NCBI GenBank assembly: GCA_963737615.1
Contig: CAVTTI010000020.1
Location: 3,322 to 67,321, forward strand
Reading direction: 5' to 3'
Source of the DNA: an uncultured Actinomycetes bacterium
GTDB lineage: Bacteria; Actinomycetota; Thermoleophilia; Gaiellales; Gaiellaceae
DNA length: 64,000 nt
Under the pieces are notes generated by a model. It searched no databases, was not told the DNA's origin, and was given only the letters and a program-made list of their open reading frames with translations. The translations under genes were made by a program, and so were the position numbers. Positions 12,705 to 30,331 of this stretch are shown piece by piece (position 1 is the first letter of the stretch; each line of letters opens with the position of its first letter).

Positions 12705-12815
12705 CCTGCTCCGCATCGAGAGAGGCTGAGGGAACCGGCCCTGTGAAGCCTCGGCAACCTGCTCCTCGGAGCAAGGTGCCAAGCCCGGCCGGGCGTCGCC
12801 CGGAGGATGTCGAGC
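12705..12815 (+). promoter_or_regulatory. SAM-I (S-box) riboswitch
   Basis: CAUCGAGAGAGGCUGAGGGAACCGGCCCUGUGAAGCCUCGGCAACC...AAGGUGCCAAGCCCGGC...GGAGGAUG follows the S-box consensus block for block (AUCnAGAG-GGnnGAGGGAnnGGCCCnnUGAAnCCnnGCAACC...GGUGCnAAnnCCnGC...AGAU). The P1 3' strand overlaps the first candidate start region of the downstream gene. Confidence 0.9.
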
Positions 12816-27805: not shown

Positions 27806-29339
27806 CCACCTGCTCGAGTGAAATCCCCAGATCCTCGAGGAGGACTGCCGCCGCGTTCCGGCCGGGCGCCGCCGAGACTGACCCGCCGGGATGCGTGGTC
27901 GCCCCCGTCTGGTAGAGGTTGGAGATCGGCAGTCGCGGCTGAAAGCGGAGCGCCCCCGACTGTGACGGCCCGAGATCGCCGCCGTGGCACGTTCCGTGCC
28001 AGTTGTGCTCGTTCATGCGCTCGAGGTCGAGCGGACTCTTGACCACCTGCGCGAGAATCGTCTCCTCCGTCATGTTCGGCGCGTAGCGGCGCAACTCGGC
28101 GAGGTTCCGGGCCGCGGCCTCCTCTTTGACCTCGTCCCAGCGCTCCGGGCCACCCTCGGCCAGGTCGTAGGGCTGAAACCCGATCACCTTCAGCACGTGC
28201 TTGCCCTCAGGAGCCCGAGAGGGATCGGCAACGGTGGCGCAGACGACCAGCAGGACCGGCTCGTCCAGAGCGAGAAGCCCACGCTCGGCCTCCGACCCGA
28301 GGCGGAGAAGGCGATCGACGGACGCGGCCGTTCCCGAGGCGACCGGGGTCACCGGGCCGCTCTCCGCACCGTACGTCGGCGCCTCGGTGGTGGCCAAGTG
28401 CGTGGGAAAGAGGCTGATGCCGCCCCGCCAGGAATCGACCGCATGAACGAACTCCTCGCCCCACTCATTGGCCGGCGCGAGCTCGACGAGCTGCTTGACG
28501 TGGATGGTGGACACGACGGCTTTTTGCGCGAGGAAGCGCTCCCCGGCCTCCGTCTCGACACCCTTGCACCGCCCTCCCTCGAGGATGAGGCCGGTCACAC
28601 GCCGGCCGGTGAGGATCGTGCCCCCGCGTTCCTCGATCAACCGCTCGAGGGCGAGCGGCAGGGCAGCCGAGCCGCCCCGTGGGAGCACCCAGCTGTTCTC
28701 CTGGCGGCCGTAGGTCAGGGAGTACGTGAGGAGACCGGTGCCAGGCCGCTCGGGTGGCTGCACGGTCATGAGGCTCATCCAGAGCATGAAGGCCCGAGCG
28801 TGCGGGTCTTCGAACTGGCCACGGACGACGTCCCAGGCGCTCATCGCGAGCCGCCGGCGCCACCGCCCGTCGAGCACGTCCTCCGGGCGCGGCGCGCGCC
28901 CGATCGGGTTGTTCCGGTAGGCCCCGAACACACGCTTGACGGCGTCGTACTCGCCGATCAGGCGTCGGTAGGCGTCGGCATCCGAACGCGAGAACTTCGC
29001 GAACTCCTGGCACGTGCGCTCGAGGTCGCGCCATAACGTGATCGAGGTGCCGTCGGGAAAGGGGAGGTGGAGGACGGGGTCCGGATGGAGGTACTCCAGT
29101 CCGTATTCCTCGAGCCGGAGCTCGCGGACGGCCGGGTTCGCCTGGATCAGGTTGTGTGCAGTCGAGCAGGAGTCGTGGAGGAAGCCCGGGAGCGTCAGCT
29201 CCTCCGTTGCGGTATTACCGCCCACCACCGATCGAGCCTCGAGCACGAGCACCTGAAGCCCTGCGCAGGCGAGGTAGGCAGCCGCGACCAGGCTGTTGTG
29301 TCCGGCCCCTGCCACGATCACGTCGGGCTCCGAGGTCAT
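27792..29339 (-). CDS. FAD-dependent oxidoreductase of the phytoene-desaturase/CrtI-like (COG1233) family
   Basis: DVIVAGAGHNSLVAAAYLACAGLQVLVLEARSVVGGN dinucleotide-binding start. C-terminal [20 protein letters not shown] is typical of this family. Confidence 0.8.
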   Translation of the reverse strand: MTSEPDVIVAGAGHNSLVAAAYLACAGLQVLVLEARSVVGGNTATEELTLPGFLHDSCSTAHNLIQANPAVRELRLEEYGLEYLHPDPVLHLPFPDGTSITLWRDLERTCQEFAKFSRSDADAYRRLIGEYDAVKRVFGAYRNNPIGRAPRPEDVLDGRWRRRLAMSAWDVVRGQFEDPHARAFMLWMSLMTVQPPERPGTGLLTYSLTYGRQENSWVLPRGGSAALPLALERLIEERGGTILTGRRVTGLILEGGRCKGVETEAGERFLAQKAVVSTIHVKQLVELAPANEWGEEFVHAVDSWRGGISLFPTHLATTEAPTYGAESGPVTPVASGTAASVDRLLRLGSEAERGLLALDEPVLLVVCATVADPSRAPEGKHVLKVIGFQPYDLAEGGPERWDEVKEEAAARNLAELRRYAPNMTEETILAQVVKSPLDLERMNEHNWHGTCHGGDLGPSQSGALRFQPRLPISNLYQTGATTHPGGSVSAAPGRNAAAVLLEDLGISLEQVVAGA

Positions 29340-29356
29340 CGACTAGCCTTGGCTCC

Positions 29357-29935
29357 GTGGCGCGCATCAGCTACGTCGACCCCGGTTCCTTGACTGACCC
29401 CGAGCTGGTCGTCTACCTCGAAGAGGCCCGCCGCTACGGGACTCCGCGGCCCGAGACGCAGGCGATCCGCTCGCACGTTCCCGCCGTCGCGAAGGCGTTC
29501 TCCCGGGCCTGGAACGCCATCTTCCGGGAAGGGCTCGTCGAGCATCCGCTCAAAGAGCTCTGCCGCGTCTACGTCTCGAAGACGATCGACTGCCACTACT
29601 GAGGGTCCCAACGGTCTCTCCGGGGCGGAGAGCAAGGGTTGACCGAGCGGGACTACGAAGACCTCCTCGATTTCGAGAGCTCCGACCGCTTCGGAGAACG
29701 CCAGAAGGCGGCACTGCTCTACACGAGCATGCTCGTCTGGAATCCGGAGGGCGCCGACGAGGCAGTGTGGGCTCGCCTGCGCGAGCACTTCACCGACGAG
29801 CAGATCGTCGAGCTCGGCTCCTTCGTCTGCCTGACCTACGGCCAGCAGCGGGTGATCAAGACCTGGGGCGTCGGCCACGGTGAGCTCCTCGCGGATACGA
29901 CCGTCGGACTCGCTCCGAGCAAGGTGGAGAGCTAG
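29357..29935 (+). CDS. AhpD/carboxymuconolactone-decarboxylase (CMD) family protein with in-frame TGA at 29600-29602 in place of the second Cys of CxxC (selenocysteine candidate, or split or nonsense gene)
   Basis: GTG 29357 gives VARISYVDPGSLTDPELV...LKELCRVYVSKTIDCHY-TGA-GSQRSLRGGEQGLTERDYEDLLDFESSDRFGERQKAALLYTS...EQIVELGSF, one continuous frame of 192 codons matching a single CMD domain. The ORF track splits it into 29156..29602 and 29639..29935, which are in the same frame. Confidence 0.6.
29604..29644 (+). promoter_or_regulatory. Hairpin immediately 3' of the in-frame UGA; candidate bacterial SECIS element
   Basis: CUCUCCG-GGG-CGGAGAG (29616-29632) is a 7-bp perfect stem with a G-rich apical loop lying 21-23 nt after the UGA. 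A possible lower stem is GGUC (29604-07) with GACC (29641-44). Hand folding only. Confidence 0.4.
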
Positions 29936-30331
29936 GTGGCGCACCTGCCGGGAAACGCCGGAGAGATCCGCGGGCGCGTGCCGGCGGTGCTCGAGTCGTA
30001 CGCGTTCCTCCGCGACAACGTCCTCCGCGACGGAGTGGTCGACCCGGCGCTCAAGGAGCTCTGCTTCCGCTACCTCGCCGAGGACCCGGAGACGATGGAC
30101 TTCGGCGGCTTCGAGGGGCGGGAGCGCCTCGCCCTCGAATGGTGCCATGCGATCGCCTGGGATTCGGACGCGGCGGACGACGCTCTCTGGAGCCGGCTGC
30201 ACGCGGAGTTCAGCGAGCAGGAGCTGGTCGACCTCGGCTGCGCGATCGGTTTCGAGCTCGGGCAGCAGCATTGGCGCCGGACCGTCGGCCTGACTGCGCG
30301 CGACGAGCCCGCTCAAGCCTCGGGCTCCTGA
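29936..30331 (+). CDS. CMD/AhpD-like family protein (no CxxC motif)
   Basis: GTG immediately after the upstream TAG. DPALKELCFRYLAEDPE...RERLALEWCHAIAW...ELVDLGCAIGFELGQQ parallels the helical CMD repeat of the preceding gene. Confidence 0.6.
   Translation: MAHLPGNAGEIRGRVPAVLESYAFLRDNVLRDGVVDPALKELCFRYLAEDPETMDFGGFEGRERLALEWCHAIAWDSDAADDALWSRLHAEFSEQELVDLGCAIGFELGQQHWRRTVGLTARDEPAQASGS

Follow-up and report, generated by a model that had tools for sequence, protein, structure and literature searches.

The locus at positions 29357 to 29935 of the DNA analyzed here raised the question of whether an in-frame UGA at the redox motif of an AhpD-like gene ends translation or encodes selenocysteine (Sec). 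The DNA, which we call the window, was a 64,000-nucleotide (nt) stretch of contig CAVTTI010000020.1 (assembly GCA_963737615.1, positions 3,322 to 67,321 of the forward strand) from an uncultured Actinomycetes bacterium of the family Gaiellaceae. A first-pass annotation, made from the letters alone, had favored a CxxU selenoprotein gene with a selenocysteine insertion sequence (SECIS). The comparative data presented here bore out this preference: the homologous codon was TGA in most related genomes and a Cys codon elsewhere, the hairpin downstream of the TGA covaried and was recovered by a model built outside the window's own clade, and the codons past the TGA were under purifying selection. 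We conclude that positions 29357 to 29935 are very probably a gene for a CxxU selenoprotein with an AhpD/CMD fold, in which UGA codon 82 is decoded as Sec and the hairpin serves as a bacterial SECIS.

We started with the reading frame. The two open reading frame (ORF) fragments listed at the locus (29156..29602 and 29639..29935) shared one frame, as the first-pass annotation had stated, and together they formed a CMD gene of 192 codons that extended from the GTG at 29357 to the TAG at 29935. Translation confirmed that the TGA at 29600-29602, in the context VSKTIDCHY-TGA-GSQRS, was the sole internal stop, and the 110 codons downstream of it contained neither a frameshift nor an additional stop. 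When the joined protein was scored with Cys placed at the stop, it matched the Pfam CMD domain (PF02627) with 25.6 bits, which is above the gathering cutoff of 23. The features of the gene were as follows.

29357..29935, plus strand: predicted AhpD-like/CMD-fold selenoprotein gene with a GTG start, a TAG stop, and 192 codons, Sec82 among them; based on translation, the Pfam CMD match, and homologs
29591..29602, plus strand: redox motif C79-H-Y-U82 (TGC CAC TAC TGA); corresponds in alignments to the CxxC motif of homologs and to PA0269 Cys48-Ala-Tyr-Cys51
29600..29602, plus strand: in-frame UGA, inferred Sec codon 82; based on TGA and TGC counts in relatives and on an independent assembly (L093)
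29612..29614, plus strand: codon of Arg86, which occupies the site of the proton-relay His of AhpD; invariant in two alignments (A1 and A3) and aligned to PA0269 His55
29616..29632, plus strand: SECIS-like hairpin with a 7-bp stem (CUCUCCG/CGGAGAG) and the apical loop GGG (29623-29625), beginning 13 nt 3' of the UGA

A protein search yielded 697 homologs with identities of up to 80%, and many of these were full-length proteins of 192 amino acids (aa) that started with MARISYVDP. The first-pass annotation had suggested aligning the joined translation to CMD-family homologs. In this alignment, the column of the UGA was Cys in >90% of the 23 aligned homologs, and the UGA position corresponded to Cys51 of PA0269, an AhpD-like protein whose structure has been solved. 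Trp occupied the column in 5 of the 120 listed proteins (JGI entries P0005, P0007, P0009, P0079, and P0085); for four of these five, the underlying DNA showed that the gene caller had put Trp at an in-frame TGA. When the N-terminal fragment was used as the query, 19 of the best 150 representatives of 50%-identity clusters terminated exactly at C-x-Y. Forms with the TGA were under-represented in protein databases because they were truncated at the TGA.

Two observations from these searches are noted here for completeness. Public gene calls treated the UGA unevenly, as it was read as Trp in JGI contigs (L001 and L007-L010), it split the gene in an ENA entry (L093 11296-11874), and many entries stopped at C-x-Y. 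In the case of P0123 (1348 aa), the N-terminal fragment was matched in 23 stretches (137 bits); a 56-residue unit is repeated in tandem about 23 times in this protein, and the match was rejected as spurious and apparently repeat driven.

A genome scan that was independent of gene calls was then used to determine the homologous codon in related species. Specifically, GTDB representatives (one genome per species) were queried with the family alignment, and the 80 best loci were analyzed. Sec was dominant in this AhpD-like subfamily: the codon was TGA in 72 of the 80 loci and TGC in 8. According to the labels of their metagenome-assembled genomes (MAGs), the TGA carriers were Gaiellaceae, uncultured Actinomycetes, Thermoleophilaceae, Solirubrobacterales, Chloroflexi/Limnocylindria, Ktedonobacterales, Binatia, Rokuibacteriota, Burkholderiales, delta-proteobacteria/Syntrophobacteraceae, and others. 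The top match was 86% identical, the nearest matches were Gaiellaceae-like MAGs, and members of the subfamily were common in Actinomycetota and Chloroflexota from soil. Contigs CAVRPZ010000002.1 and CAWGQF010000007.1 were among the close TGA carriers. We also found the identical gene and TGA in ENA ERZ25039582 contig_15814 (L093), which was 99.56% identical to the window over 20.9 kb. This contig differed by 67 mismatches and 25 gap openings and is therefore an independent assembly. Its annotation divided the gene into ORFs of 81 aa and 98 aa, neither of which had a Pfam match.

These data bear on the idea that the locus is a pseudogene or a sequencing error, in which the Cys codon TGC became a TGA stop and left an inactive fragment of 81 residues. 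Such a change is a single transversion, the close relative P0001 (80% identity) has TGC at this position, and the near-identical contig is annotated with two ORFs. However, the TGA was present in 72 species-level genomes and in a second assembly, which ruled out the TGC/TGT-to-TGA nonsense mutation that the first-pass annotation had listed as an alternative. The uninterrupted frame downstream of the TGA, the covariation of the hairpin, and the selection described below also argued against a damaged gene, and we consider a pseudogene or error extremely unlikely.

To examine selection past the UGA, the ratio of nonsynonymous to synonymous substitution rates (dN/dS) was calculated for the window gene and 17 TGA-carrying homologs, using 75 codons upstream and codons +13 to +95 downstream. 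Upstream, all but one of the 17 comparisons fell within 0.13-0.33, and the full range was 0.13-0.54; downstream, the range was 0.11-0.36, as low as upstream. Of the 17 comparisons, 15 showed no nonsynonymous difference in the 12 codons between the UGA and the TTG at 29639, and two showed a proportion of 0.039; the proportion of synonymous differences in these codons reached 0.37. Ser84 alternated between TCN and AGC codons, and Gln85, Arg86, and Ser87 were invariant in both the Sec and the Cys forms.

The same 12 codons were informative about a naturally split gene, in which translation would terminate at TGA 29600 and re-initiate at TTG 29639 via the sequence GGAGAG, yielding two polypeptides that assemble. 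The first-pass annotation had mentioned this possibility and had placed GGAGAG 5 nt upstream of the TTG. The GGAGAG was indeed present (29627-29632), at a spacing of 6 nt, and ORF callers reported a 98-aa ORF starting at the TTG. On the other hand, only 3 of the 71 distinct homologous sequences had TTG at this codon (CTG, CTC, GTC, and similar codons were found in the others), and GGAGAG belonged to the covarying hairpin as its 3' arm. Moreover, the stretch that would be untranslated in a split gene (GSQRSLRGGEQG) was conserved as protein, as indicated by the switches between Ser codon types and by the invariant Gln85-Arg86-Ser87. We regard a split gene as most improbable. The selection on both sides of the UGA and the rarity of the TTG therefore excluded both the pseudogene and the re-initiating split gene, and, as judged from these substitution patterns, UGA 82 was shown to be read through.

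Next, we turned to the hairpin. The structure that the first-pass annotation had described, CTCTCCG-GGG-CGGAGAG at 13 nt past the TGA with its loop 21-23 nt from the TGA, was found in the sequence. Its conservation was analyzed in an alignment of 71 distinct sequences of 51 nt, each beginning 3 nt 5' of the TGA (alignment A2). The seven stem pairs were standard in 90.7% of the cells, compared to 33-52% when the 3' arm was slid by 1-3 columns. Three of the seven pairs showed double changes (columns 21-35, UA in 39 and CG in 24 sequences; columns 22-34, CG in 40 and GC in 30; columns 26-30, AU in 25 and GC in 25), and loop nucleotides G27 and G28 were each conserved in at least 90% of the sequences. 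The covariation score was 0.383 versus 0.182 +/- 0.014 for shuffled alignments, and none of the 500 shuffles reached it. Position 1 of Leu/Val88 was paired with position 1 of Glu/Gln/Arg92, and position 3 of Ser87 was paired with position 2 of codon 92. Because the paired bases belong to different codons, the coupling in the stem was not explained by selection at the protein level. Where the peptide SLRGGEQ gave way to SVQGGQQ or SVQAGRK, the substitutions tracked the pairing needs of the stem.

A covariance model (R1) was built from the Binatia/Burkholderiales/delta-type clade only, leaving out the clade of the window. This model detected the hairpin with 55.9 bits (E 2.5e-13), and the runner-up on both strands of the 64 kb scored 8.8 bits. 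At the homologous sites of Cys-type genes, the model scored 18-32 bits; therefore, about half of the score for the window hairpin exceeded what the shared coding sequence contributes. Cys-type homologs did not form this stem. In the closest Cys form (L003, 80% protein identity), the site read CTCTCCGGGCCCGCGAG, with two pairs broken and five of the seven remaining, and the mean local hairpin energy was -11.7 kcal/mol in Sec forms (n=43) versus -7.2 kcal/mol in Cys forms (n=8). On these comparisons, the hairpin is a conserved RNA structure that has been selected as RNA.

The register of the stem was not uniform among the Sec forms. In one subclade (L022, L028, L031, L035, L038, and L044), the stem was shifted 1 nt towards the UGA (A2 columns 19-36) and read CCCTCC-GKG-GGAGGG. 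This subclade scored lower with a model of fixed register; L022, the sole member searched, scored about 30 bits.

Several results weighed against decoding of the UGA as Sec. Thermodynamically, the hairpin was unexceptional: the minimum free energy structure of 64 nt omitted it (z -1.09 relative to shuffled sequence), and the 41-nt fold starting at the UGA included it at -13.8 kcal/mol with a z of only -0.20, which means that shuffled sequences were equally stable. No Rfam SECIS family was matched at the gathering score or at permissive thresholds. As for the machinery, no tRNA-Sec was found in the window, as ARAGORN detected zero tRNAs in the 64 kb and Rfam detected none at the gathering score or at E <= 5, and ARAGORN found no tRNA-Sec in 60 related loci (L011-L070). 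The tRNA-Sec-like remnant that had been reported about 20 kb from the gene was likewise undetected by both programs at these settings, and this claim was dropped. When E. coli SelA, SelB, and SelD were used as tblastn queries, neither the window nor the related loci (about 1.2 Mb) yielded a selA, selB, or selD, a result that is uninformative about whole genomes. Furthermore, Cys forms with up to 80% identity (P0001) exist, so Sec is dispensable for the fold. The literature that we searched contained no experimental demonstration of selenium insertion for this subfamily, and nothing specific was retrieved on Sec use in Gaiellales or Thermoleophilia.

Two considerations are relevant to the folding results. 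Single-sequence folding was uninformative because the DNA is G+C rich (67%), and the significance of the hairpin therefore rests entirely on the comparative evidence. Folding and scanning the downstream region, as the first-pass annotation had proposed, gave a structure that was not exceptional in stability but stood far above the rest of the window in the covariance search.

The machinery results are most relevant to programmed read-through without Sec, that is, hairpin-stimulated insertion of Trp or Cys by a near-cognate tRNA in a lineage that lacks a working Sec pathway. This explanation accommodates the fact that Sec machinery could not be shown for this genome, and a conserved hairpin 13 nt past a stop codon could stimulate such read-through. 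In contrast, the recoded site was exactly the redox Cys, and Cys was the only alternative residue seen there. The size of the hairpin, its spacing, and its small G-containing apical loop are those of bacterial SECIS elements (PMC1088965), and the family is already catalogued among selenoproteins. In addition, the TGA carriers included Syntrophobacteraceae, Burkholderiales, and Chloroflexota. Sec use is well documented in all three groups. We therefore judged non-Sec read-through to be very unlikely, and we favor decoding of UGA 82 as Sec.

If UGA 82 is decoded as Sec, the gene product would be a 192-residue thiol/selenol oxidoreductase with an AhpD/CMD fold and the redox center C79-x-x-U82. 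The ribosome would pause at the UGA, and the hairpin at 29616-29632, whose G-rich apical loop is located about 21 nt 3' of the UGA, would bring in SelB-GTP together with its Sec-tRNA(Sec); translation would then proceed into the C-terminal half. In the enzyme, Sec82 would stand where the CxxC motif has its second Cys. A selenenylsulfide would form transiently between Sec82 and a partner or substrate, and Cys79 would resolve it. SelB binding and selenium insertion at UGA 82 are inferred, as is, by analogy with AhpD, the role of Sec82 as the reactive residue. M. tuberculosis AhpD uses the second Cys of its CxxC pair as the nucleophile and resolves the mixed disulfide with the first, an arrangement into which a more reactive Sec at the second position would fit. 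Of the AhpD relay positions, Glu67 and Tyr81 match, and Arg86 substitutes for the relay His.

The fold was examined by sequence and structure comparisons. The joined protein matched PA0269 in the PDB at E 1e-8. The Cys homolog P0001 (80% identical) was modeled with AlphaFold (predicted local distance difference test score 86, predicted template modeling score 0.82). The model displayed the AhpD fold, and Foldseek aligned it to Bmp8 debrominase, PA0269, Deinococcus radiodurans AhpD, and "peroxidase-related" proteins with template modeling (TM) scores of 0.6-0.8. Residues Glu67, Cys79, Tyr81, and U82 aligned to Glu36, Cys48, Tyr50, and Cys51 of PA0269. The relay His (His55 in PA0269 and His137 in M. 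tuberculosis AhpD) has been termed invariant in the AhpD-like family (PMC3141380). As defined on PA0269 and M. tuberculosis AhpD, AhpD-like peroxidases have the relay Glu, the CxxC motif, and a His four residues after the second Cys; in the subfamily described here, the last position was Arg86 in Sec and Cys forms alike.

Compared to M. tuberculosis AhpD and PA0269 (PDB 2O4D and 2IJC; PMC3141380), the protein shared the all-helical AhpD fold, with TM scores of 0.58-0.63 when normalized by query length and 0.78-0.82 when normalized by the shorter PA0269 chain, as well as the catalytic helix-turn-helix with Glu and Cys-x-Tyr-Cys at the positions of Glu67, Cys79, Tyr81, and U82. It differed in having Sec for the second Cys, Arg86 for the relay His, an N-terminal extension of about 50 residues, and no adjoining ahpC.

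With respect to curated families, the best NCBIfam match was NF053654, "YciW-related (seleno)protein" (GroundWater_YciW), with 61.4 bits (E 9e-17; residues 1-158, 179 model positions). The name of this family shows that Sec forms are recognized in a sister family, but the score was far under the equivalog cutoff of 310, which indicates a related but distinct subfamily. The score for TIGR01926, the model given for the AhpD-like selenoprotein in a 2026 review, was 29.3 bits against a cutoff of 81.8; the CxxU motif is present here. The name that JGI gives to the homologs, "alkylhydroperoxidase family enzyme," is that of COG2128. By these model scores, the predicted protein is a member of the AhpD/YciW superfamily that lies outside any curated equivalog.

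Selenoproteins of this kind have been described before. CxxU AhpD-like (COG2128) and CMD-domain families were reported in 2005 by Zhang, Fomenko, and Gladyshev (PMC1088965). In the Global Ocean Sampling survey, AhpD-like 1 (COG2128, CxxU; 299 sequences) and AhpD-like 2 (pfam02627, CxxU; 70 sequences) were among the most abundant selenoprotein families (PMC2398784). Both the AhpD-like and the CMD families are listed in reviews from 2022 and 2026 (PMC9312934 and PMC13188914), and the browsing example of BSepDB is the AhpD-like family. The protein encoded in the window resembled the AhpD-like (COG2128/YciW) selenoproteins in its CxxU motif, where the predicted Sec replaces the second Cys of the AhpD CxxC, its many Cys homologs, and its SECIS-like hairpin with a G in a small apical loop. 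However, those proteins were described from marine metagenomes, and the present clade came mainly from MAGs of soil and sediment bacteria, among them Actinomycetota, Chloroflexota, and Binatia. It also resembled the CMD-domain selenoproteins (PF02627, "AhpD-like 2"; PMC2398784 and PMC13188914) in its CxxU motif and in the CMD match above the gathering score, with the Pfam CMD family being a broad superfamily.

The hairpin was similar to the E. coli fdhF-type SECIS in that both are short stem-loops located just 3' of the UGA within the coding sequence, with a G in a small apical loop. The spacing of the fdhF element from its UGA is about equal to that of the hairpin described here. Unlike the fdhF-type element, the present hairpin had a loop of 3 nt (GGG/GGC) on a 7-bp stem that was perfect and lacked a bulged U, and it matched no Rfam SECIS family. 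In summary, the gene belongs to an established kind of selenoprotein, and its recognition corrects the annotation without revealing a new principle of recoding or of AhpD chemistry.

The distribution of Sec and Cys forms was examined in a neighbor-joining tree. The window gene was located within a large Sec clade, and the deeper branches were all Cys. Isolated Cys tips (P0001/L002-L006, P0002, P0004, and P0010) were nested inside Sec clades. This topology fits repeated replacement of Sec by Cys followed by decay of the putative SECIS. This dynamic was described earlier for bacterial selenoproteins (PMC1794560). The P0001/L003 lineage was the only Cys tip whose DNA was read, and its former SECIS (L003 10241-10291) was partly decayed, so it looked like a recent Sec-to-Cys replacement. 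The clade provides a clean natural series of Sec/Cys switches with SECIS decay after the change to Cys, and it could be used to study the evolution of SECIS elements inside coding sequence.

The locus also has consequences for annotation and for soil biology. In current annotation, the gene product is split into ORFs of 81 aa and 98 aa that lack a Pfam match, read with a Trp at the active site, or truncated; the true product is predicted to be a selenoenzyme of 192 residues. The gene implies a working Sec pathway in a Gaiellaceae-like soil bacterium and in many of its relatives in the Actinomycetota, Chloroflexota, and Binatia, which bears on selenium biology in soil.

A more specific proposal, which we put forward tentatively and rate at somewhat less than an even chance, is that these proteins form a distinct Sec-dominant AhpD/YciW subfamily with the signature E-x11-C-x-Y-U-x-x-Q-R-S and an Arg in place of the relay His, and that in soil Actinomycetota and Chloroflexota the protein works as a two-subunit enzyme with a Cys-less paralog encoded downstream, acting on a substrate other than AhpC. 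If this proposal is correct, Sec use is routine in Gaiellaceae-like soil bacteria, where it was not described in the literature that we searched. The paralog in question is the following feature.

29936..30331, plus strand: Cys-less paralog of 131 aa, about 36% identical to the AhpD-like gene product; identified by translation, with a GTG start that abuts the TAG stop of the selenoprotein gene

The paralog contained no CxxC or CxxU motif (ELCFRYLAEDPETMDFGG) and showed a weak match to NF053654. It is probably cotranscribed and translationally coupled with the selenoprotein gene, and it may be a noncatalytic partner subunit. A paralog was located directly downstream in the loci of Actinomycetota and Chloroflexota (most of L011-L052, plus L060, L081, and L083), and none was found downstream in the loci of Binatia, Burkholderiales, and delta-proteobacteria. 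No ahpC was located near the gene. The closest Gaiellaceae-like MAGs shared a gene order, with a flavin adenine dinucleotide (FAD) oxidoreductase gene upstream and the small paralog and an amidohydrolase gene downstream. The substrate may be linked to the neighboring FAD amine-oxidase-like and amidohydrolase genes, which were syntenic in the closest Gaiellaceae-like loci and sporadic elsewhere.

Upstream of the gene, only 17 nt (29340-29356) separated its GTG at 29357 from the divergent ATG (29339, minus strand) of the FAD-dependent oxidoreductase gene, and the spacing was equal in L003. This gap suggests leaderless transcripts or tightly overlapping divergent promoters.

The remainder of the window was also surveyed. 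A scan for other TGA-interrupted ORF pairs with high G+C content at third codon positions revealed no further candidate selenoprotein that carried a redox motif. Genome-wide reassignment of TGA was considered and rejected, as 17 of the 27 confident ORFs in the window used TGA as their true stop, more than any other stop codon. Weak Rfam matches to snoRNA, miRNA, and internal ribosome entry site families were attributed to chance. The sole Rfam family above the gathering score was the S-adenosylmethionine riboswitch (S-box leader, RF00162), which was located at 12710-12813 on the plus strand with 77.3 bits (E 2e-16).

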